Source: an uncultured Planctomycetaceae bacterium
Lineage (GTDB): Bacteria > Planctomycetota > Planctomycetia > Isosphaerales > Isosphaeraceae
Reading direction: 5' to 3'
DNA length: 64,000 nucleotides
Assembly: GCA_963833985.1 (NCBI GenBank)
Contig: CAWIAD010000002.1
Location: 5,568,001 to 5,632,000, forward strand
Position 1 is the stretch's first letter; every line of letters begins with the position of its first letter. Below, piece by piece: positions 23,793-58,121 of this stretch. Below the pieces are notes generated by a model. The model ran no database searches, was not told where the DNA came from, and was given only the letters and a program-made list of their open reading frames with translations. A program made the translations under genes and the position numbers.

Positions 23793-23838
23793 GAGGGGAA
23801 ACAGGGACGGAGGGGAAAGGGGGGCGAAGCTAGAATCG
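23793..23838 (-). repeat. Left arm of a 46-bp inverted repeat (partner at 26047-26092)
   Basis: Reverse complement cgattctagcttcgcccccctttcccctccgtccctgtttcccctc matches 26047-26092 at 41/46 positions without gaps (manual count). Confidence 0.85.
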
Positions 23839-23855
23839 GGAACGAGCCGCGTCCC

Positions 23856-25943: not shown

Positions 25944-26046
25944 GCCGCCTCCCCGATTTCCTGTCGCCTTACCCCAGTAGCTGCAACCGCGCCGGGTCCT
26001 CTAGGCAAGAGTAGACGGGAGAGGCAACGGGAACGCAGCGAGCTCT

Positions 26047-26092
26047 CGATTCTAGCTACGTCTCCGTTTCCCCTCCGTCCCCGTTTCCCCTC
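26047..26092 (+). repeat. Right arm of the 46-bp inverted repeat, followed by a further GTCCCCGTTTCCC unit
   Basis: cgattctagctacgtctccgtttcccctccgtccccgtttcccctc. Confidence 0.85.
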
Positions 26093-40782: not shown

Positions 40783-40935
40783 GACCGCTGCCCCCTGGAC
40801 GTTGAAAAATCCTGGTGCTTCGCCCCACCCCGCTCACTTCTCCACATCGATCTCAACGACCCGACAGAGGACGAAGATACGTCCCGATCGGGCCGGACGA
40901 GGCTCTCGTAACGCTCAAAGTCAGGATAACCATCG

Positions 40936-41135
40936 AACCACAGAGCACACAGAGAACACGGAGGGAAGACGACGGACGAGAGTAGATATGATCGACGACG
41001 GCGGATTGGTTGAACGAGATCACTGATCGGCCGGGGTCCCAGGGGTTCGAGCAAGATCGAATCGGAAAGAATGCCTATCTCGATCCCTGGCGGGTTTCTC
41101 TCCATGATCTCCGTGATCTCCGTGATCTCCGTGGT
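40936..41135. repeat. Inverted pair of 9-nt-periodic AACCAC(A/G)GAG-type repeats
   Basis: aaccacagagcacacagagaacacggag on + and ctccgtgatctccgtgatctccgtggtt (reverse complement aaccacggagatcacggagatcacggag). Confidence 0.75.
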
Positions 41136-41210
41136 TAGGTGTATTGATATTCGTTTGCGCTCCGCGGTCGCGGTCTATCCAACCGCACCGTCCCGCGGCT
41201 TTCTGTCGTC

Positions 41211-41573
41211 TCATTGGTCAATCTCGCGGGCCAGGTAGTAATAGAGTGGCTCGCCGTGGATGATCACCGGCTCGAGCGCCTTGGTGACCGGGTTGCGGTC
41301 CATGACCAGGTAGCGCGTGGGCCTGTCCTCGAACACGGCCGTCTTGCCGTCGCGCCCCGTGATCTTGATGACGCCGCGGGCCGGGTCGCGAGTGATCTCG
41401 ACCCTGGGCTTGCGCTTCAGCTCGGCCTCCAGCTCCGCCAGCCGGGCCAGCGTCGCCGGCGCCTCCTCGACGGTCAGCAGTTTTCCGTAGCCGTCATACA
41501 CGTACGTGAAGACCGCCGCATCGGTCTGGGTCTCGCCCGCTTCACGCACTTGGTCCGGCACGTTCCCGTCCAT
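41211..41573 (-). CDS. Small hypothetical protein with one YD-like motif; paralogue of 41657-42079
   Basis: Upstream gaggag RBS, FTYVYDGYGKLLTV, C-terminal FEDRPTRYLVMDRNPVTKALEPVIIHGEPLYYYLARE. Confidence 0.7.
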   Translation of the reverse strand: MDGNVPDQVREAGETQTDAAVFTYVYDGYGKLLTVEEAPATLARLAELEAELKRKPRVEITRDPARGVIKITGRDGKTAVFEDRPTRYLVMDRNPVTKALEPVIIHGEPLYYYLAREIDQ

Positions 41574-41656
41574 TGTGATACTCCTCGCCTGGTTGAAGAT
41601 TCATGCACCCTCGCTCAAAATCCGCCCCTCACAACCCGCCTCGTGAGATCCCTCGA

Positions 41657-42079
41657 TCAATTCCACTGTTCCAAATTCTCATCGGTGTTCACCTGTGGCT
41701 CGTTCCCGTCTTCATCCGCGGCCGTATCGGTTTCTTTCGCCAGGTGGTAATACACCGGGCTGCCCCACTCCATGGCGGGCCTGATCTTGCCCGTGCTGGG
41801 GTCGCGCTCCATGAACAGGAACCGTTGTGGCCGGTCGTCGAACCTGGCTGTCTCCTGGCCTTCGGTGGTCATCTGGATGACATGCCGCGAGTGGTCGTAG
41901 CTCACTTCGGTCGTCGGATCGCCGTCCCACACGAGCGACCGGTACCCGCGCCGCGCCACGCCTTCGCAGAAGTGGTGCGTGCCATCCTCGGTCGTGTAGG
42001 TGGAGATGTACCTGGGATGCTCGGACCTGGACTCGATCAATTCATCGTCCGACGTGCTCATGGCAGCGTTCTCCGTCAA
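41657..42079 (-). CDS. Small hypothetical protein; paralogue of 41211-41573
   Basis: FDDRPQRFLFMERDPSTGKIRPAMEWGSPVYYHLAKE aligns with the neighbour. Start could be 42061. Confidence 0.7.
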   Translation of the reverse strand: MTENAAMSTSDDELIESRSEHPRYISTYTTEDGTHHFCEGVARRGYRSLVWDGDPTTEVSYDHSRHVIQMTTEGQETARFDDRPQRFLFMERDPSTGKIRPAMEWGSPVYYHLAKETDTAADEDGNEPQVNTDENLEQWN

Positions 42080-42119
42080 GTGTGGCGAATGAAGTGGTCA
42101 AGGCGTGCCCAATCGCACT

Positions 42120-42200
42120 CGCGTCCCCGTTGCGGCTCCTGAGCGTGACGTTCGGCTGGCCGGCGCCGCCGAGCAGGTCGAGCCAGCGAGCATGTTGCCG
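42120..42200 (-). pseudogene. Vestigial start of a fourth Rhs orphan cassette
   Basis: Reads GNMLAGST/GGAGQPNVTLRS with a frameshift, versus GNMLTDSTSGGTGQPSVTLTS in cassette 1. Confidence 0.75.
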
Positions 42201-42290
42201 CGAATCCTCGTAAATCGAAGTACGTGGACGTTCAAGGCTTTATCCATCCTACGCAGATCGCTCGCGATAAGGGGGATGTCCCCTTCAGCC
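42201..42290. repeat. Cassette junction element copy A (90 bp)
   Basis: Ungapped match to 47858-47947 at 75/90 positions (manual count). Confidence 0.9.
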
Positions 42291-42307
42291 CCCCCCATCG
42301 TTTATGG

Positions 42308-42871
42308 CTAGTCGGTGGGGACCGCATCAACAATTGACCAATCGACTCCTTCGGGGAACTTGAATTTGCTGGGAGGCACTAATTTCAGAACGTCAAATCC
42401 GCTAATTAAAAGCAATGCGTAGTACGAGGCCTTCCTCGTAGCAACGGGCTGGCTTTCGTCCGTGAGAATAGCTTTAACAAACCTTATAAATCCTCTGTCA
42501 TTTCGCGACGAGCCCCTGCCAAGCTTGTATATGGCAGCTGCCCTGACACTGTCGTCCGGATCTTGCGACGCGACTCTTTGACACACTTGCAATACTCTGT
42601 CATCTATTCCCCATCTCTCAATTATCATATCTAAAACAGACATCCGAACGGCGGGGTCAGGGTGGTTGAGCCGGGCTTCTGCCGCGGCACGGTCACACTC
42701 TAGGATCTCAGGGCAACTAATTAACAGCCGCGCCCGTCTCTCGTCCCTCCTACGGGAGAATGCACTTTCGACCCTTCGAATCTTGTGTCCGAGATCCGTG
42801 AAAGTCTCGCCAAATCCTCGGACCTCCTCTATTTCCCTGCGGTAGTAGACTCCGTCTTCGTCTCGAGCCAT
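42308..42871 (-). CDS. HEAT-repeat protein, putative immunity partner of cassette 3
   Basis: LNHPDPAVRMSVL, QDPDDSVRAAAIYKLG, DESQPVATRKASYYAL; low GC; directly after tip 3. Confidence 0.75.
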   Translation of the reverse strand: MARDEDGVYYRREIEEVRGFGETFTDLGHKIRRVESAFSRRRDERRARLLISCPEILECDRAAAEARLNHPDPAVRMSVLDMIIERWGIDDRVLQVCQRVASQDPDDSVRAAAIYKLGRGSSRNDRGFIRFVKAILTDESQPVATRKASYYALLLISGFDVLKLVPPSKFKFPEGVDWSIVDAVPTD

Positions 42872-43008
42872 CGCCGCTGCCTCCACAACCGTTCGTGCTA
42901 GAGTGAGGTTACTCTTGACCCATCGACTGTTCACGCAAGCTCGGCTCATTGGAATACTAAGCAGGCCGCCGAGCAAGCGGAATTGAGCATTCTTTAATGA
43001 AGTGCCGC

Positions 43009-44808
43009 TCAGCTTGGTGAGGACAAGCCGCCGGGGCCAGGCGGACTCGCCCCGCCCGGGCCCGGCGGGTTCCCACCGCCAGGCCCCGGCTGCCCGCGTC
43101 GGTTCATAAGCTCGCTTAGCTTTATGAGTAGGTCCTCCATCTTGTCCTTCAACGTGTCTAGGGACTCTCGCATTACACCTTGCACCTGGCTCCAAATCTC
43201 ATCGTCCTCGGGATCGTCTGGGGGCTCGCTGTCATTTCCCAGGACGTCCCAGACGGCCATAGAGCTAGCGATCTTGGCTAGCTCATCCTTAACCGCTTGG
43301 ATTTCTTCCTCAAGCTCCTTGGTTGCGTGAGCCATCATCGCCCGCCCGTATAACTTAATCGCGTACACATTCTGAGCATACTTGATCTTCTGCGTCAGGA
43401 CATCGCCAGCTAGCTTAAAGCTTTGTTCAGCTTGATAGGCCTCGTACCATTGCTCGGAGAGGTGGTACCCGTAGGCCAATTCTGCACCTATGATCGCGGA
43501 GCCCGCTACCGTAATTACGCCGGCGCCCGTGAGCAGCAGTCCTCCTCCGGACGCAATGGCGGTCAGCGTCAAGGCGTTTGAGCCTGTAGCGTCAACAGCG
43601 TTCGTGGTGTTGTTCGAGACGTATCGGTACAAGTTTCGGTCGCCGGCCCTGAACCAATACGGATCTTGTTCCAGGAACCGCCCAACCCCTGCTCCATACC
43701 ACCGCGCGTGATCGTAGTACTGCCCGATCGCGGCGTCCCACTCCATCCCCGTGAACTTGAACCGGTCGCCGTTTCCTCCGCTGCTCTCGCTGAGGATGTC
43801 GCCGTAGCTGTCGTAGACGATGTGGTCCAGCTCGGCACCTGTAGTACTAACGATGTCGCGGATGCTCCCTAACCTGTCGGTCAGATACCACGCCGTTGTG
43901 CCGCCGGACGATGTTCGCGCCAGGATCTCATCCACGGCCGGACCATAGACGTAGCGGGTGAGGAGGGTTCCGGAAGCGCTGAAGTCGGCGTAGGGGTTGG
44001 CGTCAGGACCCTGGCCGTCGTAGACGGTCCACATCTGCGTGCCGTTCGTATCCACTCCGATGCGGTGGTCCAGTGCATCGTAGGTGTAGGTCACCTGCTC
44101 CAGCGTCGTGCCGCCGGAGTTTTTCTCCACCGCGCTCATCATCCGGTTGCGGTCGTCGTAGCTGAACGTCCACACGTTTCCATTCGAGAGCTGAGTCTCG
44201 CCGATCGTGTTGCCCTCGTTGTCGTAGGTGAACGTGTAGCCGCCACCGGATTGCAGCTCGTTGCCCGTGCCTGTCGTGTAGCCCGACATGTTGCGGTTGC
44301 CACCCGAGTCGTAGCTGTAGTTCTCGGTGCGTGAGCCCTTGGCGGTGAGCAGTTCACCTCCGGAGTCATAGCTGTAAGTAACGGTCCCTTCGGCGTTGAC
44401 CTCGGTCGTGACGCGGTTGGCGTTGTCGTAGCCGTAGAGGTACGTCGCCAGCGCCGTGCCCGTACCCGTCTGGTCGGTGATGGTTCCGACTCGATTGGCG
44501 GAATCGTAGACGATCGAGGTATTGACCGAGGTGCCCAGGCCGCCGATGGTGCGCGAGAGCGAGGTGAGCTGGTTGGCCGGGTCGTAGCCGAATAGGATCT
44601 GCGGGCCGGCGGCGCCGTTGTAGCTCGCCGAGATGGTGGTCAGGCGGAACGCAGCGTCGTACTGGTACGTGATGATTCCAGCGTTGCCGGTGATGCTGTC
44701 GCTCAGGCTGGTGCGGTCGTGATAGGCGTCGTAGCCGGAGGTCAATGTCACGCTCGGCTGGTGCGTCCCGCCGCCCGACGTCGCATCGGTCAGCATGTTG
44801 CCGCCGGA
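43009..44808 (-). CDS. Orphan Rhs cassette 3: core fragment plus unique tip (hydrophobic segment and coiled coil)
   Basis: Near-copy of the main gene core ending in NTTNAVDATGS, followed by an unrelated tip of about 190 aa. Confidence 0.88.
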   Translation of the reverse strand, partial: SGGNMLTDATSGGGTHQPSVTLTSGYDAYHDRTSLSDSITGNAGIITYQYDAAFRLTTISASYNGAAGPQILFGYDPANQLTSLSRTIGGLGTSVNTSIVYDSANRVGTITDQTGTGTALATYLYGYDNANRVTTEVNAEGTVTYSYDSGGELLTAKGSRTENYSYDSGGNRNMSGYTTGTGNELQSGGGYTFTYDNEGNTIGETQLSNGNVWTFSYDDRNRMMSAVEKNSGGTTLEQVTYTYDALDHRIGVDTNGTQMWTVYDGQGPDANPYADFSASGTLLTRYVYGPAVDEILARTSSGGTTAWYLTDRLGSIRDIVSTTGAELDHIVYDSYGDILSESSGGNGDRFKFTGMEWDAAIGQYYDHARWYGAGVGRFLEQDPYWFRAGDRNLYRYVSNNTTNAVDATGSNALTLTAIASGGGLLLTGAGVITVAGSAIIGAELAYGYHLSEQWYEAYQAEQSFKLAGDVLTQKIKYAQNVYAIKLYGRAMMAHATKELEEEIQAVKDELAKIASSMAVWDVLGNDSEPPDDPEDDEIWSQVQGVMRESLDTLKDKMEDLLIKLSELMNRRGQPGPGGGNPPGPGGASPPGPGGLSSPS

Positions 44809-44919
44809 GATACACATGGAGCTCAAAGTCCACAGCCGCATTGCCCGCTCCTTAGCGAATAATTACCCTCGCGGATGATAGTGGCAGCCCAAGACTTGCC
44901 CTTCTGACTCATCTTATCT

Positions 44920-44950
44920 GCGATCAGAGGAATGTCCCCTTTGGCTTTCC
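44920..44950. repeat. Cassette junction element copy C (short core)
   Basis: gcgatcagaggaatgtcccctt matches 47921-47942 at 21/22. Confidence 0.85.
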
Positions 44951-44953
44951 TGC

Positions 44954-46051
44954 CTACCTGCCTAGAAGGACGCGGACACCGCTCGGCAACAGCGTTTCAC
45001 AGTCATTCTCAGTAATGCCGGTCGACCTGAGGTCCAACACGCGGAGTTTGGAGAGCCTGCGGAGCCTCGACAGCGACCTGGCCGTTATCGCGGCCCCGCG
45101 GAGGTATAGAACTTCCAAGTTCGGCAACAGCCCGAGCTCAAGCACGTGTGCATCGGTTACTCTGCATCCGGAGAGGTCAAGAGTTATTAACCCCGCCCAC
45201 CGGGGATCAGCCAGCCAGCTCAGCCCGGTTACCGCCGTGTCGGATGCGTAAAGATACCTAACCCTGGGCGCGTCCACCGCTATCAAGCCTCGCGCGCTTA
45301 CACGATCACCTGAAACATCCAGCAGCTCCAACCCTGGTAAGCGCGCACGGGCAAGCCCCTCATCACTCACGCCGGTGCAAGCCACCGATAATGAACGTAG
45401 GGAGGGAAGTGCACTGAGGATCGGCAGCGCCTTATCCGTTATCTGCGTATGGCTGAGCCCTAGGGCCTTCAGGCGTCTCAGTCTCTCGAGTTCTCGGATG
45501 CCGCGGTCTGTCACCTTGCAGCCGGCTAGATTGATCTCCTCTACGTTTTCGTTGCGTCCCAGGTATCTCAGAGCGATGTCCGTCACGGCCGTGTCGCCGA
45601 GAACGATTACCCTCAGTCGCTTGAGCCGATCGATCCCCTCCAGCCAATCGTCCCTCACCGCAGACTCGCGTAGCACCAACTCCTCCATTTCCCCGAGGCA
45701 AAACGAATCTTGAAACGTCGCGCGATCCAACTCCGTGTTACGAGTGAAGTCAAGCCCCAGGATGTATCTCCTCCCCTCGCGTGGCTCCTCGAACACCACG
45801 GCTCCAATGTTCTCTAGTCGGCGGAGTACGCGGCCTCTCTCTTGGGCTTGCTGCTGGGAGATGGGCGCGCCCGCAACGGGCTGGCACGCAGGAGCGATCC
45901 CTAGGCCCCACTCCCGCGGATCCGCAAAGGGGAGGCAGTTAGCCGCGAGCAGGGTAACAAACAGAGGAACTCTGCAATAGGTCCGAGCACGGAGCTCACG
46001 CTCAGGTGGGTAGCCCGGCTTACGACCAACGCTGTGGACGGGGTGTTTCAT
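44954..46051 (-). CDS. Leucine-rich-repeat protein, putative immunity partner of cassette 2
   Basis: Repeated LxxLxLxxTxVTDxGL units (LKALGLSHTQITDKAL, LDLSGCRVTD), hydrophobic N-terminal segment. Confidence 0.85.
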   Translation of the reverse strand: MKHPVHSVGRKPGYPPERELRARTYCRVPLFVTLLAANCLPFADPREWGLGIAPACQPVAGAPISQQQAQERGRVLRRLENIGAVVFEEPREGRRYILGLDFTRNTELDRATFQDSFCLGEMEELVLRESAVRDDWLEGIDRLKRLRVIVLGDTAVTDIALRYLGRNENVEEINLAGCKVTDRGIRELERLRRLKALGLSHTQITDKALPILSALPSLRSLSVACTGVSDEGLARARLPGLELLDVSGDRVSARGLIAVDAPRVRYLYASDTAVTGLSWLADPRWAGLITLDLSGCRVTDAHVLELGLLPNLEVLYLRGAAITARSLSRLRRLSKLRVLDLRSTGITENDCETLLPSGVRVLLGR

Positions 46052-46067
46052 CTCGGGCTTGTCCGCG

Positions 46068-47856
46068 TCACGGTTGCGTTTTACTCTGATTCGACTGTTT
46101 CTGCTGCTGCAACTGCTGCATCATCCCCTTTACAATACTCTGCACAAACTCCTGGGCTGCTTTATTTAGGTCCATATACTGATTCGCGGTATAATGCTTC
46201 TTCCTATACGTCTGCATCTGAGACTGCTCAGAGGTGAGTGGGTAGTAAGCTGTCATGTAGTCATATAGGGTGCCATAGCTGGAGTCACCTCCGATCTTGT
46301 GATGAATCGCCGTGGGCTCCGGATGGTTCGCGTTATTGTTTGTGTAGAACAAATAGGCGTGAAGCATCTCGTGCACTAGCATATCGTAGATCAGGGCGCT
46401 CTCGGTTTTGGGCAGCCTGCCACTCCTCGTTCCTGAGGTAAATCTTCGTAGTGAGATTTGAGTAAGTCCGTGCGAGATAATAACTGTCCTGGTCGAGGAT
46501 TTCCACATCATATTTATCCTTTATTGTATTATAATAGCGCATGTAATCTTTATTTTTTTTGAGATTCTCCATAGCCGCCTCAATTTCCTGTCGGAGGGTG
46601 TCGCTGTCGATCGTCGGAGCCGTATTGGACAAGCCACTCGGGTCGACAAAGTCGGTCACGCCATTGCCGGCGTAGCGGTAGAGATCCGTGTCTCCGGCAC
46701 CGTAGGATGACGGGTCGATTGTTAGGAAGCGTCCGTCTTGCGCCCCATACCACCTCGCGTGATCATAGTATTGCTGAATTGCCGCATCCCACTCCATCCC
46801 CGTGAACTTGAACCGATCCCCGTTGGATCCGCCACTGCTCTCGGAGAGAATGTTGCCGTAGCTGTCGTAGACCACGTGATCGATGCTCGTTCCGGAAGTG
46901 TTCACGATGTCGCGCACGCTCCCTAACCGGTCGGTGAGATACCAACCGGTCGTGCCGCCGGACGAGGTTCGCGCCAAGATCTCGTCAACGGCTTGCGTCG
47001 AGACGTATCGGGTCAGCAGCGTTCCCGAGCCGTTGAAGTCGGCGTAGGGATTTGCGTCGGCGCCCTGGCCGTCGTACACGGTCCACATCTGGGTGCCGTT
47101 GGTGTCGACCCCGATGCGGTGGTCCAGCGAGTCGTAGGTGTACGTCACCTGCTCCAGGGTCGTGCCGCCGGAATTCTTCTCCACGGCGCTTGTCATCCGG
47201 TTGCGATCGTCGTAGCCAAAGGTCCAGACGTTTCCATTCGAGAGCTGGGTCTCGCCGATCGTGTTGCCTTCCTTGTCGTACGTGAACGTGTAGCCGCCGC
47301 CGGATGACAGCTCGTTGCCCGTGCCCGTAGTGTAGCCGGACATGTTCCGGTTGCCACCCGAGTCATAGGAATAATTCTCGGTGCGCGAGCCCCGCGCTGT
47401 GAGCAATTCACCACCGGAGTCATAGCCGTAGGTGACCGTGCCCTCGGCGTTGACCTCGGTGGTCACGCGGTTGGCGTTGTCGTAGCCATAAACATACGTT
47501 GAGAGTGCCGTTCCAGTGCCCGTCTGGTCCGTGATCGTGCCGACACGGTTGGCGGCATCATAGACGATCGAGGTGTTCACCGCCGTGCCCGAGCCGCCGA
47601 TGGTGCGGTCGATCGAGGTGAGCCGGTTGCCCGGGTCGTACCCCAGCACCACCTGCGGCCCGGCGCTGCCGTTGTAGCTGGCCGAGATGTTCGTCAGCCG
47701 AAAAGCAGGGTCGTACTGGAAGGTCGTCACGCCGACATTCCCCGTGATGTTGTCCGTCAAGCTGGTGCGGTCGTGGTACGCGTCGTAGCCGGAGCTCAAT
47801 GTCACGCTCGGCTGGTGGCTGCCCGGACCCGACGTGGAGTCGGTGAGCTGGTTGCC
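46068..47856 (-). CDS. Orphan Rhs cassette 2: core fragment plus HEXXH zinc-metallopeptidase tip (frameshift near 46405)
   Basis: Core ends VDPSGL at about 46630. The AT-rich tip continues in another frame with LIYDMLVHEMLHAYL. Confidence 0.85.
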
Positions 47857-47857
47857 T

Positions 47858-47960
47858 CGAATCCTCGTGAGTCGAATTACGGACACGTTCAAGGCTTTAT
47901 CCATTCTGCGCAATTTGCTCGCGATCAGAGGAACGTCCCCTTCAGCCTCCTTGTCCCTTT
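47858..47960. repeat. Cassette junction element copy B (90 bp plus an extra tgtcccttt unit)
   Basis: cgaatcctcgtgagtcgaattacggacacgttcaaggctttatccattctgcgcaatttgctcgcgatcagaggaacgtccccttcagcc. Confidence 0.9.
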
Positions 47961-48000
47961 TAGCTTTCACGTACAACGCTCAGTAGTGCCCCGGCTGGCT

Positions 48001-48462
48001 TTATTGCACATTGAGATCCTCGTCTCGCGGAATGAGGTAGAGGTCGAGCGAGAGGTCCAAGTTGAGCTGTCCTAGCCTGCCAAGTTGCGACGGGTATAGA
48101 TTGACCACGCCGAGGCCCTGACTTGACGCCCAGAAGCAAGATACTCTCGTCACACACCGACGCGCTTGAAGCTGCGAGAACTCATGGCGCGATGGCCAAA
48201 GCTTGTCCAGGATCCAGTCGACGTGTCGCCCGAGGTCCCTTGAATCGACGATCCCCTTCGACGAAAGGAACCAAGCGGTTACCGGGTACGACCGTTGCAA
48301 TCGCTCGTGCACACGTTCGCCGCGACGCTGAATCTGGCTTGGTGATATACCCAAACTCGCAGTGACCAAATCCGGATCGATTTCCTCGCTGTAGATGCAA
48401 AGTGTCGCGTATGTCCTAGAGCACGTCTCGGTTTGGTCGCAGTATCGCTCGTTATTTGGCAA
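48001..48462 (-). CDS. DUF4279-family protein, putative immunity partner of cassette 1
   Basis: TYATLCIYSEEIDPDLVTASLGISPS...WFLSS...HVDWILDKL...LGQLNLDLSLDLY. Start is uncertain (TTG 48462). Confidence 0.8.
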   Translation of the reverse strand: MPNNERYCDQTETCSRTYATLCIYSEEIDPDLVTASLGISPSQIQRRGERVHERLQRSYPVTAWFLSSKGIVDSRDLGRHVDWILDKLWPSRHEFSQLQARRCVTRVSCFWASSQGLGVVNLYPSQLGRLGQLNLDLSLDLYLIPRDEDLNVQ

Positions 48463-48631
48463 TGGCCCCGCCCCCGCCCGTCCGCGTCTTTGTTTTCTTG
48501 CCGCCCCGAGCCCTGCCCAGGAGATGCTCACCTTCCGGCGCGGGTGCACCGGTGTGCACCAAGTATGATCGATCACGAAGTGGCGACCGGGAAACGCAGT
48601 GACCGCGTCTACGCTTGTCCCGGCCTCCGAC

Positions 48632-50285
48632 CTACGTGTCTGGCGGGCAGTATCTCGGATCGACTTGCCACATCTGCCACTCAAATATGAAAAACGGGGC
48701 GACTGACACGGTCCCACGGCTCCGACCGAGCTCCACCAGCTCCCTGGCCAGCACTTCCCACTGCGAATAGCTCAGGTTATCATTGGGGCTTCTGCCAGTA
48801 GAATCCTTGAAATCATGCCCATAATCCGAGAGCTCGTATGGATTCAGGTTGTACCTCTTGGCCAGTTCCACGATGATCTTCCATCCCGAGGTCGCACTGA
48901 GCGTAGGAGTGGGGCCGGGCCTTGTGGGCGCCTGAGGCGGCACTGGTGGCGACGCCCGCCCAGGCCTGTTATGGCTTGGCGTCATGCCCTGCACGGGCTC
49001 ATCCGCCGCCGTTCCACCGCCGCTCATCCCGCTCGGGTCAGTGTAAGCAAGCGGCCGATCAGCCGCATAGCGGTAGACGTTGTCGTCCCCGGCCGAGAGA
49101 CCCAGCGGATCCTGCTCCGCAAACCTCCCGACCCCCGCCTCATACCACCTCGCATGATCATAATACTGCTCGATCGCCGCATCCCACTCCATGCCCGCGA
49201 ACTTGAACCGATCGCCGTTGGAGCCCCCGCTGCTCTCGGAGAGGATATTGCCGTAGCTGTCGTAGACGACGTGATCGATGCTCGTGCCGGACGTATTGAC
49301 GATGTCGCGAACGCTTCCTAACCTGTCGGCCAGGTACCAGGCGGTTGTGCCGCCCGAGCTGGTGCGGGCGAAGAGCTCGTCGACGGCTGGGCCGGAGACA
49401 TATCGCGTCAGTAATGTCCCTGAGCCGTTGAAGTCGGCGTAGGGGTTGGCGTCGGCGCCCTTTCCGTCGTACACGGTCCACATCTGAGTGCTGTTGGTGT
49501 CCACGCCGATGCGATGGTTCAGGGCATCATACGTATACGTTACCTGCTGGAGCGTCGTCCCGCCCGAATTCTTCTCCACGGCGCTGGTCATCCGGTTGCG
49601 ATCGTCGTAGCCGAACGTCCAGACGTCGTGAGTCGAGAGCTGCGTCTCGCCGATCGTGTTGCCTTCCTTGTCGTACGTGAACGTGTAGCCGCCGCCGGAC
49701 TTTAGCTCGTTACCCGTGCCGGTGGTGTAACCCGTCATGGTGCGGTTGCCACCCGAGTCATAGCTGTAGTTTTCCGTCCGCGAGCCGCGGGCGGTCAGTA
49801 GTTCACCACCGGAGTCATAGCCGTACGTGACGGTCCCCTCGGCGTTGACCTCGGTGGTCACGCGGTTGGCGTTGTCGTAGCCGTAGACGTAGGTTGATAG
49901 CGCCGTGCCGGTGCCCGTCTGATCGGTGATGGTACCGATGCGATTGGCGGCATCATAGACGATCGATGTGTTCACCGCCGTGCCTGAGCCGCCGATGGTG
50001 CGCGAGATCGAATTCTGGCGGTTGCCCGGGTCATAGCCCAGGATCACCTGGGGGCCGGCCGTGCCGTTGTAGCTGGCCGAGATGTTCGTCAGCCGGAAGG
50101 CGGCGGCGTACTGGAACGTCGCCAGCCCGGCGTTGCCAGCGATGTTGTCGGTCAGGGTGATGCGGTCGTGGTAAGCGTCGTAGCCGGAGGTGAGCGTGAC
50201 GCTCGGCTGGCCCGTGCCGCCGGAAGTCGAGTCGGTCAGCATGTTGCCGCCGGAGTCGTGGGCATGAGTGATGGTAGCGTAGTTA
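48632..50285 (-). CDS. Orphan Rhs cassette 1: core fragment plus unique tip of about 130 aa
   Basis: Homology to the main gene begins at NYAT. Core ends PLAYTDPSGM. Tip contains ELSDYGHDFKDSTGRSPNDNLS. Confidence 0.88.
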
Positions 50286-50293
50286 ATCAAAAC

Positions 50294-50384
50294 AATGACT
50301 CCTGACATCTTATCTCTGACACTTTATCCTCTCACCTTATCCCCCTCCCTGACACCTTATCCCCCTTTGAAACCTTATCCCCCT
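50294..50384. repeat. Junction D: five degenerate tandem (TGAC)ACCTTATCCCCCT units
   Basis: cctgacatcttatct ctgacactttatcct ctcaccttatccccct ccctgacaccttatccccct ttgaaaccttatccccct. Confidence 0.85.
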
Positions 50385-51463
50385 CCGTCGCTGGGTGGCC
50401 CGTGCTGAGGTGCTGCCTCCCGCGCGGGCTTGATGGGAGCGGCGCTCTTGGCCCTCGCCAACGACGGTACGTCCCAGAGCTTGATCGTATGATCCCGGCT
50501 GCCGGTGGCGAGCAGTTTCCCGTCCGAAGAAAACGCCACACAGCGTACAACGTTGCCATGGCACTTCAGCACCGTGAGGACGTCGAACGAGTCGGGCTCG
50601 AAAAGGTGCAAGGTCCCGTCCCGGCATCCCGCGGCCAGCAACTTGCTGTCAGGCGAAAAAGCGACCGAGTCTACATGGCCATGGAAACCGCGGAGCGTCG
50701 CTTTCAGATTGTTGGTATTCATGTACCACACCCGAGCCGTGTCGTCATCTCCGCCGGAGGCGATCCACCTAGTGTCTGGGGAGAAGCAGACGGAGTTTGG
50801 CATTCGGATGTGGCCAGTCAACGTGACACGCGACCGCCAAGTCGTCGTGTCCCAGACAACAACATCATGCCCCCTGGTGGTCGCCATGCAGGAACCATCA
50901 GTGGAAAACGCCACGCAGTTGCTAAAAGGAAGACTCGGCAACGCCTCCCCGGCAACGGATGTCACCACCCGATCAGTCCGGAGATCGTAGAGCAAAGTCT
51001 GCCCTTTCAGGCCCGCGCTAGAGATGGCAAGGATCGAGCCGTCGCGAGAGTACGCGATAGCGAAGATCGTATCCTGAGTGTTGTGTATCTCCCTATTTAG
51101 CCCGGTGGCTACATCCCAAAGCTCGACGCTGCTGTCCTGAATAATGCGCCGATGGTTAACCCTCAGCGAATGATATGACGAGGTGGAGGCGACCTTCTTG
51201 CCGTCGGGTGAAAAGGCAACTCTGCCGATGGACGAGCGCTTCGAAAAACATGCTCGTTCCGCGCCCACTACTGTGTCCCATAGTCTGATAGTCTGATCAT
51301 CGTTACCGGCTGATGCCAAGAGCTTTCCGTCAGGAGAAAAGGACACGCAGCTCACCTCGTCCTTGTGGCCAACCAGAGTAGCAATCGGCTGGACGTCTTG
51401 CGCTTTGAGCGGCCAATGGTTGGCGATCGCTAGACAGACGATGGGGCACAGCAACTTGTGCAT
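50375..51463 (-). CDS. Exported WD40 beta-propeller protein, putative cognate partner of the main Rhs tip
   Basis: Signal-peptide-like start, about 7 GH...FSPDG...WD repeats, lower GC. Confidence 0.9.
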   Translation of the reverse strand: MHKLLCPIVCLAIANHWPLKAQDVQPIATLVGHKDEVSCVSFSPDGKLLASAGNDDQTIRLWDTVVGAERACFSKRSSIGRVAFSPDGKKVASTSSYHSLRVNHRRIIQDSSVELWDVATGLNREIHNTQDTIFAIAYSRDGSILAISSAGLKGQTLLYDLRTDRVVTSVAGEALPSLPFSNCVAFSTDGSCMATTRGHDVVVWDTTTWRSRVTLTGHIRMPNSVCFSPDTRWIASGGDDDTARVWYMNTNNLKATLRGFHGHVDSVAFSPDSKLLAAGCRDGTLHLFEPDSFDVLTVLKCHGNVVRCVAFSSDGKLLATGSRDHTIKLWDVPSLARAKSAAPIKPAREAAPQHGPPSDGGG

Positions 51464-51542
51464 GACAATTCCTTACTCGAATTTAGGGGAGGCAAGGGAC
51501 GGTCCAGCTACGACGGCAGCAAAAGCGAGAGGGGTCATGAGA

Positions 51543-54500
51543 TCATCCAGGGCCGTTCCCTCCGCCTCCGGGGCGGCCACCGGCAACGGGGTTACCGTCT
51601 ACTCCAACCACCCCCGGACCCACCACCGGGTTCGGCTCTTGCGACGGTTGTGGCAGCACCATCGAAGGATGCTCACCAGCGAGGATCTGGCGCACCCACT
51701 GCTGCGCTTGCTCGAACATCCACTTCTCGACCTCAAAGAGTTTGTTCGCAAGCTCCGCTTGCTGTTCGGCGTACTGACGCTGTAGTTCCTCCACATCCGC
51801 GTCTTGCACCTGCACTTGTAGTTCGATTCCCGCCCACATTGCCTCATCCTGTTTGGCCTGGTGTTCTTGAAGGGCCCGATACCAGGCCCTGTACCTAGGC
51901 ATCCAATCCCTCCACCATTTCCATTGTTCTTTGTTCGCGTTCAGGTCCGGTGCCCATTTGGGACTACTGGGGTATGGCTTACCACTGGGATAGGCCATCG
52001 GGCCGCCAGGCCTTGGCGGAATGTTCCAAGGAGCATCTCCTGGCCCCGGAAAGTTGCCCCATCCACGGCCCAGTGGAACTTGCAGCCCGCTTGGGTCAGT
52101 CGCGTTGCCCGGGGAACCGTGAACGTAGCGGTACTCATTCGGGTCGCCAGCCCTGAACCCGAGCGGATCGAGTTGACCGAACCTTCCTACCACGGGCCCA
52201 TACCACCTCGCATGGTCATAATACTGCCCAATCGCCGCATCCCACTCCATCCCCGTGAACTTGAACCGGTCGCCGTTGGATCCTCCGCTGCTCTCGGAGA
52301 GGATATTGCCGTAGCTGTCGTACACGACGTGGTCGATGCTCGTGCCCGAGGTGCTCACGATGTCGCGCACGCTTCCTAACCTGTCGGCCAGATACCAGGC
52401 GGTTGTGCCGCCCGAGCTGGTGCGGGCGAAGAGCTCGTCGACGGCCGGGCCGGAGACGTATCGGGTGAGCAGCGTGCCTGAGCCGTTGAAGTCGGCGTAG
52501 GGATTGGCGTCGGCGCCCTGGCCGTCGTACACGGTCCACATCTGGGTGCCGTTCGTGTCCACGCCGATGCGGTGATCCAGCGCATCGTAGGTGTACGTCA
52601 CTTGTTCCAGCGTGGTGCCGCCCGAGTTTTTCTCCACCGCGCTGGTCATCCGGTTGCGGTCGTCGTAGCCGAAGGTCCAGACGTCGTGAGTGGAGAGCTG
52701 CGTCTCGCCGATCGTGTTGCCTTCCTTGTCATACGTGAACGTGTAGCCGCCGCCGGAGCTCAACTCGTTGCCCGTGCCCGTGGTGTAGCCGGTCATGTTC
52801 CGGTTCCCACCCGAGTCATAGCTATAGTTTTCCGTCCGCGAGCCTCGTGCGGTCAGTAGTTCACCACCGGAGTCATAGCCGTACGTGACCGTCCCCTCGG
52901 CGTTGACCTCGGTGGTGACGCGGTTGGCGTTGTCGTAGCCATAAACATACGTTGAGAGTGCCGTGCCGGTGCCCGTCTGGTCGGTGATCGTGCCGACACG
53001 GTTGGCCGGGTCGTAGACGATCGAGGTGTTCACAGACGTGCCCGAGCCGCCGATGGTCCGCGAGATTGACGTCTCGCGGTTGCCCGGGTCGTACCCCAGC
53101 ACCACCTGCGGGCCGGCGCTGCCGTTGTAGCTGGCCGAGATGGTCGTCAGCCGAAACGCAGGGTCGTACTGGAACGTCGTCACGCCGACGTTGCCCGTGA
53201 TGTTGTCCGTCAAGCTGGTGCGGTCGTGGTACGCGTCGTAACCGGAAGTCAATGTCACGCTCGGCTGGTGGCTGCCCGGACCCGACGTGGAGTCGGTGAG
53301 CTGGTTGCCACCCGAGTCATAGGTGAAGCTCAGGGTCGCGTAGTTATCCGTGATCTTGGTCAGCTCGTTATCGGCGTCGTAGGTGAGAGTGACAAGATTC
53401 GTCACGCCGCCGGAGGCGCTGTACCAGGTCTCGCCGGTCTCCTGGCCGCCGGAGTCGTACGAGTACGTGACCACCCGGCCGTCGCGGTCGGTGGACGCGA
53501 TGAGCTGGTCATCATAGTTGTACAGGTAGGTCGCCGTGTTACCCAGCGGATCGGTCATCGTGGTCAAACGGTCGGCCGAGTCGTAGCCCCAGGTCGTGTG
53601 GTTGCCCAGCGGATCGGTCAGAGTCGTCATCCGCCCGGCCGCGTCATAAGCCATGGTGGTGGTGTTGCCCAGCGGGTCGACGATCGTCGTGGCCCGGTTG
53701 TCGGCGTCGTAGAGCGTGGTCGTCACGTTCCCCAGCGCGTCCTTGACCGTCTGCTGGTTGCCTCCCGAATCGTAGCCGTAGACCGTGGTATGCCCCAGCG
53801 CGTCGGTCACTGTGGTCAACCGGTTCATCGTATCATAAGCATATTGCGTCGCGTGGCCGTTCGCGTCGGTCATCCCCGTCATGTTGCCCACGCCGTCATA
53901 CCCGTAGGTCGCCGTGTGATTATTGGCGTCCGTGTAGGTGGTCAGCCGGTCGTCCTTGTCGTAGAAGAACGACTCGGTCGAGCCCCCGCTGTGGCCGGGG
54001 CTGGTCACGGTCGATTGCTTGCCGGTGGGCGTGTAGGCGTAGGTCGTGAGGTTCCCCAGGCCGTCCTCGACCGTCGCCACCCAGCCCCGGTCGTTGTACG
54101 TCGTCGTCGTGATCCGGCCCAGCGGGTCGGCCACCTGGATCACCTGCCCCTCGGCATCGTAGGTCGTGGTCGTCACCGCGTTGGCGCTGGCGGTCAACGG
54201 GGCCGTGACCACCGTCGGCCGGTTGAGGGCATCATAAGAAATCGACGTGATGCGGCTCATGGGATCGGTGATCTTGATCAGGTTGCCGCCCGAGTCGTAG
54301 CCGTACACCGTCACCCGCGACAGCGGCGCCGTGACGGTTACCGCGCGGTTCATCGCATCGTAGGAGATGGTCGTCGTGCGGGCGATCTGGCCCGATGGCG
54401 TCGGGTCCTGTTCGACGATCATGTTGCCACCTGAATCGTAGACAAACGTCGTCCGGTTCGTCAACGGGTCGGTCATGCCCGTTTCGCGGTTCATGGCGTC

Positions 54501-57359
54501 GTAGCTGTAGGTCGTGGTGTTCGACCGCTGGTCGGTGACGGAGGTGATGTTCCCCTGGTTGTTGTAGCCGTAGAGGATCTTGGTGCCGTCCGGGTTCAGG
54601 ACCGTGGTGGCGCGGTCCTGGCTGTCGTACTGAATGCTCGTGGTATGCCCGTTGGCATCCTTGAGCGTGGCCAGCATGCCGTCGCCGGTGTAGGTCATGG
54701 TCGTCAGGTTGCCCATCGGGTCCTGCGTGACCGTCAGGTTGCCGTGGCTGTCGTAATCGTACGTGTACACATGGTTGTTGGCGTCGGTGAACTGGGTGAC
54801 CTCGGCGAAGCTGTTGTAGCTGTACTGGTCGTAGTTCAGGTCGGGGTAGGTGTGCTGGGTGATGTTCCCCTTGCTATCGTAGGTGTACTTGTCGATCCGG
54901 TTCAGGCGGTCGATGGTGACGGTGGCCAGGCCCATGGACGCGCCGCTGCCGATGCGATCGAAGCTGGCCACGTTGCCCAGCGGGTCGACGGCCACGTTGG
55001 TCAGCCCCTGGCCGTTCCAGTCGGGCAGGACCGAGGTCGTGTTGCTGTTGGGATCGGTGTAGGTGCTGGCGGAGGTGGCCAGCAGCACGGCCGCCGTGCC
55101 CCCGCCGGAGGTGCCGCTGTTGGTGAATCCCGCTTCCTGGCCGGGGAAGAACTCCTCGGTGCTGCTGTCCGGGCGGGTGATCGTCGAGGCGCGCTGGGCC
55201 GAGTCGTACGCAACCGTCACGGTCTTCGAGTTCGGATCCGTCACCTGGGTCAGGCGGCCCGAGCCGTCATAGGCATAGCCCCAGGTCGAGTTGTCGGGCA
55301 AGGTCGCACCGGTGAGGTTGGAACCGCTGTGGGTGAAGGTCGTGTAGCGGCCGGCCGGATCCTTGATCGACTGCAAGTAGCCCCCGCTGTACGAGAAGGT
55401 CGTGATGTTGCCGTACGGGTCGGTGATGGTGCTGAGGTTGCCGCTGGAGTAGGCGTAGGTGATGTGCAGGCCGTTGGTGTCGATCGTGGCCGTCTCGTGG
55501 CCGCCGGAGTCGAAGCTGATCTGGGTGCCGTCGGTCAGGGTTCTCGTGAACGTCCCTCCCGAGTTCTCCAGCAGCGTCGAGAACTCGCCGGGCGGGTCGG
55601 TGAACGTGCCGCCTCCGCTGCCGAAGCTGCCGCTGAACCAGAGGCTGCGGCCACCACTGCCCAGGTCGAGGATCACCCCGCCGGAAGCCGGCGTGATCTT
55701 CTCCAGGCCCGAGACCGTCCAGCCGTCGCCGATGGCGCTGGAGGACTGGTTGAGCACGGTCATGGTGCCGGTGAGCGTCGTGGTGGTCATGGTGCCACGG
55801 TAATCGACGACCGTGGCCGTGTCGTTGTAACGCCCGGTGCTCTGTCCGGTCATGTTGGCTTGCAGCGCCATCTGCTGGATGTCGCCGGGCATGAGCTGGC
55901 TGGTGTTGTCATACCAGGTCGAGCCGGTGTAAACCGTGGTGCCGCCGGTGGTGCTCACGCTGAGCTGGCCGCTGTCCTGCGACGGGAGCGTCAGCGACGA
56001 ACTGAGCGCATGCGGGATGTCGACGATGGGGCGTGGATCCGCCGTGAGCGAGTTGTAGGTCAGGGCGAGCGCCGGGACGTTGGGATTATAGCTGGGCAGG
56101 TTGATGTCCGTGTTGAGCGCGCCGCTGGTGGCATCCACGGAGACGTTATGGCTGTCGAAGGCGGGCGCCTGGGGCTGCACCAGGTCAGGGGGTAGCGAGC
56201 CTGGCCAGGTGGGGTCGCCGCCACCGCTCATGCCCGAGCTGGACCCGGCGGGAACGAGGAAGTCATACGTGAACGTCTCGGTATGCGAGTTGGTATCGGT
56301 CACCGAGAGCGTGACGCTGTTCACGCTGGGCGCGGGGTTGACGCTGCCGTTGCCCCAGGTGAAGGTCAGGTCGTAGCCGGTGGTTCCCGAGACGTGGTTG
56401 ACCAGCGTCAGGTTGGTGGTGTTCCAGCTGATCGAGCTGACCGTGGTGTTCTCCACCTGGGCGCGGAGATCGACGAACTTGTTGAACGTGGCCAGCTGGT
56501 AGGCGCCCGGGAACATCACCTCACCCTGCGTATAATCGACCACGTACACGGGGAAATAGGGAAACGACCCGAGGCTCGCCCCGGAGGAATTGCCGATCGT
56601 CGGGTCGATGTTCGGGTTGATGCCGCCGCCGGAGCTCGACCCCGAGCTCGCCGGCGGTGGCGGCTGGGGTGGAATGGCGCTGGGAGGCGCACCGGCATGG
56701 GGCGGAGGTGAGGCGCCCGGCTCCGGGCTGCCGGCGCCCGGGTTGGGCGTTGGCGGGACAGTGGGCTGAGACGCGCTGGAGGCGGCTGCCAGCAGGGCGG
56801 AGGAGGCCGCCTGGTTGCTGCCGCTCGAACCCGGCGCGGGAACCTTCAGCGGCGTGATCGCGCCGCGGTTTGCAGTAGCCGCTGGCGCACTACCGCCGGC
56901 GCCTGTGCCCAGGTTGATCACCTGCCCGGCCCCCTGGCGCTGCGCCGGGTGCCAGGGAGGCGTGATGCCTGTCACACCGTTCGAGGCCGGGCTTTGCAGG
57001 GGTAGCAGGCTTAGCCAGTCGCCCGGCGCCGCTGGCGCCGGCACGATGGAGACGGGAACGAGGCCTTGTGCATTGCCCGCGCCGCCGGTTGTTCGCGGCC
57101 GCGCCGCGGCGGAGTTGAGAAAAGTCGCCGCTCGCGCCGTGGTGCCGGCGCTCGCGGGGGCATTCTGTCCAGGAGTTGCACCGCTTCCCCGGCCGGGCCG
57201 GGCCGCGGTGCCGGCAAGCTGCGCCTTGCTCGCCGCCGACAGACCCAGGAGGGAATCCAACCCCAGGGGCAGCCCCATGCTCAGCGCCGTCAGACTGATC
57301 GGTTCCGTGATCATTATCCGGAGCTCGCATTGTTCCAGGCGATCGAACTTCCTGGCCAT
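51543..57359 (-). CDS. Large Rhs/YD-repeat polymorphic toxin (1938 aa)
   Basis: Pro/Ala/Gly/Ser-rich N-region, dozens of YD repeats, core end FKFTGMEWD...YYDHARWY...GRFGQLDP...SPGNATDPSGL, unique tip of about 180 aa. Confidence 0.96.
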   Translation of the reverse strand: MARKFDRLEQCELRIMITEPISLTALSMGLPLGLDSLLGLSAASKAQLAGTAARPGRGSGATPGQNAPASAGTTARAATFLNSAAARPRTTGGAGNAQGLVPVSIVPAPAAPGDWLSLLPLQSPASNGVTGITPPWHPAQRQGAGQVINLGTGAGGSAPAATANRGAITPLKVPAPGSSGSNQAASSALLAAASSASQPTVPPTPNPGAGSPEPGASPPPHAGAPPSAIPPQPPPPASSGSSSGGGINPNIDPTIGNSSGASLGSFPYFPVYVVDYTQGEVMFPGAYQLATFNKFVDLRAQVENTTVSSISWNTTNLTLVNHVSGTTGYDLTFTWGNGSVNPAPSVNSVTLSVTDTNSHTETFTYDFLVPAGSSSGMSGGGDPTWPGSLPPDLVQPQAPAFDSHNVSVDATSGALNTDINLPSYNPNVPALALTYNSLTADPRPIVDIPHALSSSLTLPSQDSGQLSVSTTGGTTVYTGSTWYDNTSQLMPGDIQQMALQANMTGQSTGRYNDTATVVDYRGTMTTTTLTGTMTVLNQSSSAIGDGWTVSGLEKITPASGGVILDLGSGGRSLWFSGSFGSGGGTFTDPPGEFSTLLENSGGTFTRTLTDGTQISFDSGGHETATIDTNGLHITYAYSSGNLSTITDPYGNITTFSYSGGYLQSIKDPAGRYTTFTHSGSNLTGATLPDNSTWGYAYDGSGRLTQVTDPNSKTVTVAYDSAQRASTITRPDSSTEEFFPGQEAGFTNSGTSGGGTAAVLLATSASTYTDPNSNTTSVLPDWNGQGLTNVAVDPLGNVASFDRIGSGASMGLATVTIDRLNRIDKYTYDSKGNITQHTYPDLNYDQYSYNSFAEVTQFTDANNHVYTYDYDSHGNLTVTQDPMGNLTTMTYTGDGMLATLKDANGHTTSIQYDSQDRATTVLNPDGTKILYGYNNQGNITSVTDQRSNTTTYSYDAMNRETGMTDPLTNRTTFVYDSGGNMIVEQDPTPSGQIARTTTISYDAMNRAVTVTAPLSRVTVYGYDSGGNLIKITDPMSRITSISYDALNRPTVVTAPLTASANAVTTTTYDAEGQVIQVADPLGRITTTTYNDRGWVATVEDGLGNLTTYAYTPTGKQSTVTSPGHSGGSTESFFYDKDDRLTTYTDANNHTATYGYDGVGNMTGMTDANGHATQYAYDTMNRLTTVTDALGHTTVYGYDSGGNQQTVKDALGNVTTTLYDADNRATTIVDPLGNTTTMAYDAAGRMTTLTDPLGNHTTWGYDSADRLTTMTDPLGNTATYLYNYDDQLIASTDRDGRVVTYSYDSGGQETGETWYSASGGVTNLVTLTYDADNELTKITDNYATLSFTYDSGGNQLTDSTSGPGSHQPSVTLTSGYDAYHDRTSLTDNITGNVGVTTFQYDPAFRLTTISASYNGSAGPQVVLGYDPGNRETSISRTIGGSGTSVNTSIVYDPANRVGTITDQTGTGTALSTYVYGYDNANRVTTEVNAEGTVTYGYDSGGELLTARGSRTENYSYDSGGNRNMTGYTTGTGNELSSGGGYTFTYDKEGNTIGETQLSTHDVWTFGYDDRNRMTSAVEKNSGGTTLEQVTYTYDALDHRIGVDTNGTQMWTVYDGQGADANPYADFNGSGTLLTRYVSGPAVDELFARTSSGGTTAWYLADRLGSVRDIVSTSGTSIDHVVYDSYGNILSESSGGSNGDRFKFTGMEWDAAIGQYYDHARWYGPVVGRFGQLDPLGFRAGDPNEYRYVHGSPGNATDPSGLQVPLGRGWGNFPGPGDAPWNIPPRPGGPMAYPSGKPYPSSPKWAPDLNANKEQWKWWRDWMPRYRAWYRALQEHQAKQDEAMWAGIELQVQVQDADVEELQRQYAEQQAELANKLFEVEKWMFEQAQQWVRQILAGEHPSMVLPQPSQEPNPVVGPGVVGVDGNPVAGGRPGGGGNGPG

Positions 57360-57654
57360 GCGGGCACGTCTTCGCTCGGTGAAGCTGAGGCGGTGCTTGC
57401 TCAGGATGCGAATCCCTCGGCCCGGCGCGGTCCGATCCCGTGGCCCACCGGGCCCGGTCCATGGCGAGAAAGGCGCGGACCGAGAGCCGGCGGGGTAAGC
57501 CCCTGGAAGCGAGTCACGAGATGACGCTTGAAACAGAGGTCAGGACGTAGCCCACCTCGCGCTGCGAGCCGGCGAACGCCAGCGCAGACAAAGACTGACA
57601 AGTGGAGGTAACGAACGTGTCACATCAGAAAGTGCGGTGCCCGAACGCACGACG

Positions 57655-57715
57655 ATTTTAATTCCGCGGAAAGGAAGGTCAAGAAAATTTCTGATCATGC
57701 CGGTGATTTTCTTGA
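57655..57715 (-). promoter_or_regulatory. Candidate sigma70 promoter for rhs overlapped by a 10-bp inverted repeat
   Basis: Minus strand TTGACC (57682-57677), 16-nt spacer, TAAAAT (57660-57655). IR tcaagaaaat (57679-57688) / attttcttga (57706-57715). Confidence 0.55.
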
Positions 57716-57927
57716 AAGACACCAGACCCTGTGCGGTCGCGGTGGTGCACCTAACCTTTTTCGGATCAATCGCTTTCGTGTCACCTGATTCGTTCGGAGA
57801 ACAGCTGAAAAAACTCATCGAACTGACCGGCCACTCTCGCCTGTGAAGTCTCTGACTCTGCTGAAATCGGGGAACGACCCGACCAGGGAGACAGGCTGAC
57901 GCTTCGGCGTGGGCCGAGGCCCTTTTC

Positions 57928-58085
57928 CTATTTCTTTGAGAACTTCCGGCCGTTCTCCTCCAGCAGCCTGGCGGCGCTGAGGCCGCTGCCCTGGAAGGTC
58001 CGGCTGCCGAAATGGTGGACGAACTGGTCATGTGCCACGGCCAGCGAAAACCCTGCGCGGCGGGCACGCTCGCACAGGTCACAAT
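57928..58085 (-). pseudogene. GT2 fragment paralogous to about 39781-39930
   Basis: LCERARRAGFSLAVAHDQFVHHFGSRTFQGSGLSAARLLEENGRKFSKK versus LAERARRAGFSLAVAHDLFVHHFGSRTLQGNGIDAARLLEENGRRFAEK. Confidence 0.85.
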
Positions 58086-58121
58086 GATCGATGCGCTGGC
58101 CGCCATGAAACCCTCCCCCAC

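Follow-up and report, generated by a model that had tools for sequence, protein, structure and literature searches.

Integron cassette arrays combine attC sites, short direct-oriented sites behind gene ends, with the integrase IntI. For arrays of Rhs polymorphic toxins, the C-terminal displacement model invokes homologous recombination between Rhs cores by way of a proposed circle (Jackson et al. 2009, PMC2935791; PMC5361080), and the former does not settle how a circle or orphan junction first comes about (PMC2935791). Also described are TIRYT genes, Y1 HUH genes that lie between terminal inverted repeats (TIRs) whose consensus is given as GGGG[AT][CG]A[CG] (PMC3733652, PMC6006769). Here we analyze the junctions of an Rhs array in a 64,000-nt stretch of the genome of an uncultured Planctomycetaceae bacterium (contig CAWIAD010000002.1, positions 5,568,001 to 5,632,000; hereafter the window). 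A first-pass annotation had proposed that toxin/immunity cassettes are mobilised there at att-like sites lying between each partner gene and the next cassette. With slightly better than even confidence, we instead read the four junctions, J1 to J4, as solo left TIR half-sites that a Y1 HUH enzyme acting in trans would have joined to DNA behind partner genes, with homologous recombination between cores then spreading the cassettes.

On the minus strand of the window, a full-length Rhs gene is followed by a WD40 gene, orphan core 1, a DUF4279 gene, orphan core 2, a leucine-rich repeat (LRR) gene, orphan core 3, a HEAT-repeat gene and a core stub. All of the junction sites are solo and co-oriented, and they do lie just 3' of the partner stop codons (26, 16 and 20 nt from stop to motif core at J1, J2 and J4; at J3, 39 nt for the outer copy and 62 nt otherwise). 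J1 (42201..42290) consists of a GGGGACAT half-site plus leader. Its homolog J3 (47858..47965) has a GGGGAC-type half-site, one outward re-copy (TGTCCCTTT, present at 47952 as annotated) and a leader of ~70 nt fused to the Rhs core at about residue 1351. The reported match of 42201-42290 with 47858-47947 at 75/90 without gaps was reproduced. Past the GTCCCC end identity drops to 3/10, 5/10 and 2/10, and on the other side it extends ~20 nt into Rhs-core sequence, so J1 and J3 join core-derived DNA at the same base. That the base is shared had been correctly seen, but it indicates common descent of one junction rather than repeated site-specific exchange. J2 (44895..44945) is a GGGGACATTC half-site with a decayed J4-type unit directly after it, and its 22-bp core at 44920-44941 agrees with the J3 copy at 21/22. 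J4 (50290..50386), read as a solo left TIR of GGTGTCAGGA type from its 24-mer match to TIRs of TIRYT genes and from a position weight matrix (PWM), carries four outward staggered re-copies, then TTGA, then Rhs core; the stop codon of the WD40 gene falls within its outermost unit. Its five units can be placed near 50303, 50317, 50330, 50350 and 50368, but only one is an exact 17-mer and the others are degenerate. The idea of one motif for all four sites held in part, in that J1-J3 have GGGGAC, but J4 belongs to a different family, GGTGTCAG. Read in the Rhs sense, J1-J3 start with AAGGGGAC and J4 is ATAAGGTGTCAGG or a variant of it, which defines two motif families. Nor does every junction precede a cassette, since J1 leads only to a frameshifted core stub of ~60 nt (42140..42200). 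Where this stub ends there is a tentative fifth TIR-like site of CGGGGACGC type (42100..42134, minus strand; PWM 10.8; 24-mer match 18, within the null), oriented as J1-J4.

Judging from their letters, J4 and J2 are likely TIRtron ends. GGGGACAT in J2 and GGTGTCAG in J4 are each one mismatch off the published consensus, and both sites combine a TIR core with an A-rich outer flank; TIRs of TIRYT loci in other genomes include AAAAGGTGTCAGGA and AAAAGGGGACATTC types. When compared with 265 TIRYT flanks over 24 nt, J4 matched at 20/24, its twin in a second Rhs locus at 21/24 and J2 at a marginal 19/24, with 39 of 40 null draws reaching at most 18. A PWM built from independent TIRYT flanks scored J4 at 15.7, J2 at 12.2, J3 at 8.8 and J1 at 8.3 in the Rhs sense. 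J1 and J3 were assigned as TIRs on three grounds: the 22 bp in common with J2, the re-copies, and a homolog of the 90-mer, though diverged, that lies directly before a TIR-flanked Y1 gene; this match was equaled in 0/2000 shuffles for J1 and 2/2000 for J3. Staggered re-copies had been taken as scars of strand exchange at recombination sites, and they proved typical of TIRYT ends: they occur on the outward side of 9/29, 15/45 and 10/64 real TIR ends, in three sets that overlap in part, compared with a rate of 1.1% for random 10-mers. No two window junctions form an inverted pair around a Y1 gene, and complete pairs are present elsewhere in the genome; the junctions are half-sites, not complete TIRtrons. 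Canonical REP (repetitive extragenic palindromic) or REPIN elements, with a palindromic stem and GTAG-type foot, were also considered for the junctions and rejected, as no stable stem was found. The palindromic repeats of this genome flank other Y1 genes.

No tyrosine recombinase or RAYT-like gene was noted in the window, consistent with the trans-acting enzyme that had been postulated, and candidate TIRYT genes are encoded outside it. The genome has seven Y1_Tnp matches, among them three intact genes bracketed by inverted repeats on both sides (C2:2427251, 3098949 and 6400663), all above the PF01797 cut-off and two of them with long outward staggered arrays. From their motifs (NHFH or DHWH, WQ, and YIEANP or YVEANA, the third gene lacking the final P), these candidates are assigned to TIRYT, or TnpA-Y1 class 2, which combines HUH, W-Q and Y---NP with TIRs instead of REP hairpins. 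TIRYT in turn probably equals TnpA-Y1 subclass 2.1 and RAYT group 1. The local proteins, at 225-243 aa, are in line with the subclass 2.1 median of 238; two NF047646 scores of 74 and 64 lie below the cut-off of 80, and no helix-turn-helix (HTH) was found by Pfam at E<=0.001. The nearest relatives of the genome's Y1 proteins come from Isosphaeraceae, Planctomycetaceae and Gemmataceae. Of the two enzyme types originally suggested, the RAYT-like Y1 HUH protein is retained but the tyrosine recombinase is not.

As the first-pass annotation required, the motif recurs elsewhere in the genome and marks module boundaries. A blastn search with J1 gave 10 hits genome-wide including J1 itself, 9 of them at E<=6e-9, so the 90-mer is not a chance match. 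Twelve J1/J2/J3-type copies were compared (the J1 blastn matches, J2 and one further short copy). They have 10 different left flanks, and ungapped homology ends no more than 19 nt outward of the motif in 65/66 pairs, the exception being J3 and its twin. Allowing gaps adds a second exception, a pair with 346 nt in common (then 64/66). The right ends are ragged, from 17 to >900 nt, so a fixed left end stands against a variable right one. Seven copies run into the Rhs core at the identical place, which points to a single ancestral event rather than recurrent exchange. One copy truncates a glycosyltransferase gene at the tip of three staggered re-copies, and other element copies are positioned after PIN toxin genes. 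The intact form of the glycosyltransferase gene, the only target for which one is known, has no matching site at the insertion point.

Several mosaics and neighbors were also noted in the genome. Six dispersed mosaics, at C2:675k, 1542k, 2425k and 5717k and at C1:880k and 2321k (L009, L010, L011, L017, L018 and L019), comprise a conserved ~250-nt leader, an internal Rhs-core stub, glycosyltransferase fragments and REP-like repeats; a TIR pair marks the exact point where the leader is cut in the C1:880k mosaic. Their Rhs pieces were considered as toxin-tip ends, but this was rejected, the pieces being internal core stubs. TIR sites and TIRYT genes are often near toxin-antitoxin genes, namely four PIN genes, a Phd antitoxin, DUF2442 and an AbiE pair (L011-L014, L017 and L021).

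Relatives of the same family were surveyed at 60 Rhs loci, hand-picked among 150 listed of 248 matches with orphans and long contigs favored, and at 40 control regions at arbitrary positions of the same contigs. TIRYT genes or fragments were found in 15/60 Rhs loci versus 0/40 controls (p=3e-4; significance within the family is overstated because kin are not independent). The expected proximity to Y1 genes is thus borne out from the Rhs side, but most TIRYT genes lie away from Rhs. Using a TIR model trained on TIRYT flanks minus three loci overlapping the test set, with whole genomes kept, we found a TIR site 0.5-3.5 kb behind 29/67 Rhs cores (26 loci, 18 genomes; ~4 of the 29 chance-like by eye), compared with 22/240 tiles from the controls and with 26/290 windows that follow other long open reading frames (ORFs), where the orientations are 11:15. 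Of the 29 sites, 19 have a sense stop codon no more than 120 nt away, as against 33% for random positions. Left-right pairing gave 41 TIR pairs versus 3 in controls. Because any intact element starts in the same way, the orientation of the first downstream site (27:2) was set aside and unpaired sites alone were counted: high-confidence half-sites are 24:4 in the window's orientation (17:2 and 36:9 at other thresholds; 15:2:1 per locus). Co-location and polarity are thus observed in one family. At four loci of relatives (L056, L066, L092 and L096), several different TIR families alternate every 1.5-3 kb behind the Rhs gene and often abut one another, like J2; TIRs may target older TIRs.

Spread of a cassette could be traced in a single case. 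The window at 38.4-57.8 kb has a paralogous Rhs locus (L008, C2:4.670-4.685 Mb), with the same glycosyltransferase-TPR gene after each and with differing tips and partner genes. The two loci share a 3578-nt block at 93%, and in 100-nt bins their Rhs cores are mosaic. J3 and ~300 nt of core are 96-100% identical between the loci before the sequences diverge (100, 100, 96 and 94% for J3 versus its twin, then ~84%), and at the 5' ends of the J4-type cores the loci differ. Since the tip-DUF4279-J3 block common to both loci has both of its crossover points within Rhs cores, homologous recombination probably accounts for that event. The sole traceable swap is therefore likely ordinary homologous recombination and not the work of integron-like sites, and it does not support the claim that cassettes are mobilised at short GTCCCC(T/G)TT-type sites.

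These observations suggest a route in three steps. A TIRYT protein would nick the outer tip of a TIR and join it to DNA just past a stop codon, with repeated nicking and resealing producing the staggered re-copies. Some events would be one-ended, giving a unit with a sharp TIR end and a stretch of neighboring DNA that varies in length, the cargo here being leader and Rhs core with tip and partner gene optional. Once a TIR-core junction exists, core-by-core recombination, whose pattern is visible in the two loci, would copy and shuffle tip-partner-junction blocks, so that half-sites of a single orientation come to separate the modules of the array. We lean only narrowly toward this set of steps, in which TIRYT makes the joins, some of the joins are one-ended with core DNA, and core recombination does the spreading. 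The sites are likely a frequent by-product, and a possible seed, of orphan modules in TIRYT-rich planctomycetes rather than a required att system. A bolder proposal, which we regard as doubtful, is that TIRYT supplies the first step of Rhs C-terminal displacement, in that a one-ended HUH reaction at a TIR half-site makes a TIR-core junction or circle that is then integrated through the core. If so, TIRYT would drive the diversification of polymorphic toxin arrays in planctomycetes. The genome offers a cargo, candidate enzymes and candidate sites, for which cutting is predicted at the staggered tip.

A number of results weigh against this reading. J1 and J3 match TIRYT flanks at only 17/24 and 18/24, within the null, and a TIRYT gene with exactly the J1/J3 repeat was not found among the TIRYT loci compared. 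Every core join in this genome may stem from one ancestral event, and the one swap that can be followed speaks against a dedicated cassette system, lying as it does inside the cores. At orphan 5' ends in relatives, TIRs occur in 6/33, 3/33 and 1/33 cases at three thresholds (p=0.026, 0.12 and 0.42), and a first, GGGTCA-biased TIR model gave no enrichment at orphan starts (3/33 vs 4-5%). Clear TIRs at orphan starts are found in L056, L058, L076, L082, L084 and L086; several other orphans start at IS-like (insertion sequence-like) or featureless DNA. IS genes, represented by 24 repeat families chosen by eye as transposase-like, are in 15/60 Rhs loci versus 4/40 controls (p=0.07), which suggests that the islands attract mobile DNA generally. 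A position behind an incoming gene is common for TIR ends at large (42/119, compared with 17% at random), and a Rhs core end is found in only 6/78 and 0/58 TIRYT loci. In other families, 20 array loci have no TIRYT gene and no excess of TIR sites (7/54 vs 5/30, p=0.75), and most of their genomes had no TIRYT match; Rhs arrays there form without TIR-type sites. Five TIRYT-rich genomes from other families have TIRYT within 6 kb of 3/30 Rhs core ends, where ~0.3 would be expected by our estimate.

Much of this fits passive debris, a rather unlikely alternative but the one that must be taken most seriously. Under this explanation, whole TIRYT elements or gene-less TIR pairs would land downstream of genes in dispensable islands, have their right halves deleted and then be copied by core recombination, never moving Rhs DNA themselves. 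The 41 paired TIR clusters and many TIRYT genes behind the Rhs genes of relatives favor it, as do the general preference of TIR ends for gene 3' ends, the gathering of IS genes in Rhs loci, the arrays elsewhere that form without TIRs and the core-to-core crossovers of the only swap that can be traced. However, an extra reason is needed for the survival of left halves at 24:4, and another for a leader-plus-core unit with a fixed left end behind many unrelated flanks. Even if debris is all that the junctions are, they reveal a measurable insertion preference and warn that such motifs are not att sites.

The 90-mer could also be a conserved leader, promoter or small RNA of the orphan modules, its GGGGAC start being TIR-like by coincidence. 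This would agree with the null-level TIR matches of J1 and J3 and with the inner 70 nt, which are conserved across copies and readable as a short open frame. It is nevertheless improbable: Rfam gave 0 matches at E<=1 over 40000-58500, no fold was found, and a search of 60 relatives yielded no copy of the 90-nt leader, the five matches in three genomes being to Rhs core only. The 22 bp in common with J2, the staggered re-copies at two of the 90-mer copies and the homolog before a TIRYT gene also argue against it. The original proposal of integron-like att sites served by a tyrosine recombinase in trans fares slightly worse and is largely refuted. Sites behind stop codons in direct orientation, and 13 PF00589 matches in the genome, are what it would predict. 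Against it, the five sites show no attC-like fold (z -1.03 to +1.25 vs shuffles), the best TIGR02249 score in this 96% complete genome is 98.9 bits against a cut-off of 265, so no integron integrase was detected, the motifs fall into two unrelated families and match TIRYT ends, the intact glycosyltransferase gene has no partner site, and the crossovers lie within cores. Least credible of all is one segmental duplication behind the 90-bp copies, which would suit the shared core join of the core-bearing copies (common descent on that side) and the single duplicated block of J3 and its twin, but which is refuted at the left end by ten different flanks among 12 copies that all break within ~20 nt of the motif.

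The array itself, on the minus strand throughout, fits a Rhs polymorphic toxin locus, with a full gene, orphan cores with different tips and a partner after each; the tips are putative toxins and the partners putative immunity proteins. Its head is the Rhs/YD-repeat gene at 51543..57359 (1938 aa; PF05593, TIGR01643, TIGR03696), followed by the WD40 partner at 50375..51463 (PF00400). Orphan module 1 (48632..50285) combines a C-terminal tip with core sequence that corresponds to the main gene from about residue 1339 on, and its partner is the DUF4279 gene at 48001..48717 (PF14106). In module 2 (46068..47856) the tip occupies two frames that overlap, 46333-47976 and 46068-46511, of which the second has a weak SprT-like match, and the LRR partner follows at 44954..46051 (PF12799, PF13516). 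Module 3 (43009..44841), with a core from about residue 1342, precedes the HEAT-repeat partner at 42308..43195 (PF13646, just below cut-off). HEAT and LRR proteins are counted among immunity types in PMC3482391.

Small acidic ORFs of similar appearance close both Rhs arrays (window 41211-41573 and 41657-42079; L008 4771-5139) and are possibly orphan immunity genes; neither of the two in the window has a Pfam or NCBIfam match. Other features of the window include a DDE_Tnp_1_4 transposase over two overlapping frames (62420-63791) and an inverted pair of CACAGAG-type repeats (40380-40416 and 40931-40967) around the 5' part of the glycosyltransferase gene, a repeat also present at dispersed copies. 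TIR-like arms of CGGGGACG type, 63 nt long, form an inverted pair (23793-23855 and 26030-26092) around 2.2 kb with a DDE_Tnp_1 transposase gene and an ORF of unknown function; this may be an element bounded by TIRs in which cargo has taken the place of the interior. A palindromic GACAGGCATTC-type repeat occurs at 58114-58178, at ~6590-6740 of L009 and in L005; the family also flanks a different RAYT gene (C1:1082471) and, in the element copy at C2:5714k, terminates the core stub. In metagenome contigs, a 20-nt degenerate pattern was found at 14 loci, none with a TIRYT or Rhs match and most of them due to chance by a rough estimate. Three (L280, L284 and L286) are short dimeric repeats whose arm starts with GGGGACATTCCTCT, with an inverted partner arm ~40 nt off.

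Polarised TIRYT half-sites behind Rhs partner genes are likely new. TIRYT ends were described in 2013, and a full-text search of the name returned as relevant only PMC3733652 and one follow-up. We found no TIRYT/RAYT-Rhs link in the main texts of the open-access literature searched; where both terms are present, in bioRxiv 2024.07.17.603846, the text treats them separately. Integron arrays differ from the window in that there is here no hairpin and no IntI, the site families are mixed, and the crossovers lie outside the sites. The procA lanthipeptide genes (bioRxiv 10.1101/2020.03.09.984088) resemble it in having a subclass 2.1-type Y1 gene beside a diversified gene family, but no inverted repeats were found there and the causal claim was later withdrawn, whereas here TIR ends mark the junctions. 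Closer are the TIRtrons (Di Nocera et al. 2013, PMC3733652), which comprise Y1 HUH genes bracketed by TIRs with a GGGGWSAS-like core and, in other parts of the genome, TIR copies that are solo, dimeric or grouped; TnpA-Y1 subclass 2.1/RAYT group 1 (Quentin et al. 2018, PMC6006769) is the probable class of TIRYT. In the sections of these papers on the elements, neither a Rhs or toxin-partner link, nor polarity of solo ends, nor one-ended carrying of flanking DNA is described. The sites here also deviate from the consensus given there (GGGGACAT and GGTGTCAG cores), and by Pfam the local enzymes have no HTH tail. Finally, with its main gene followed by modules of core fragment, tip and partner, as in the core account of the displacement model (Jackson et al. 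2009, PMC2935791; PMC5361080), the array is an ordinary Rhs displacement locus. Where that account of the model names no site or enzyme (PMC2935791), the orphan junctions here carry transposase end-repeats.

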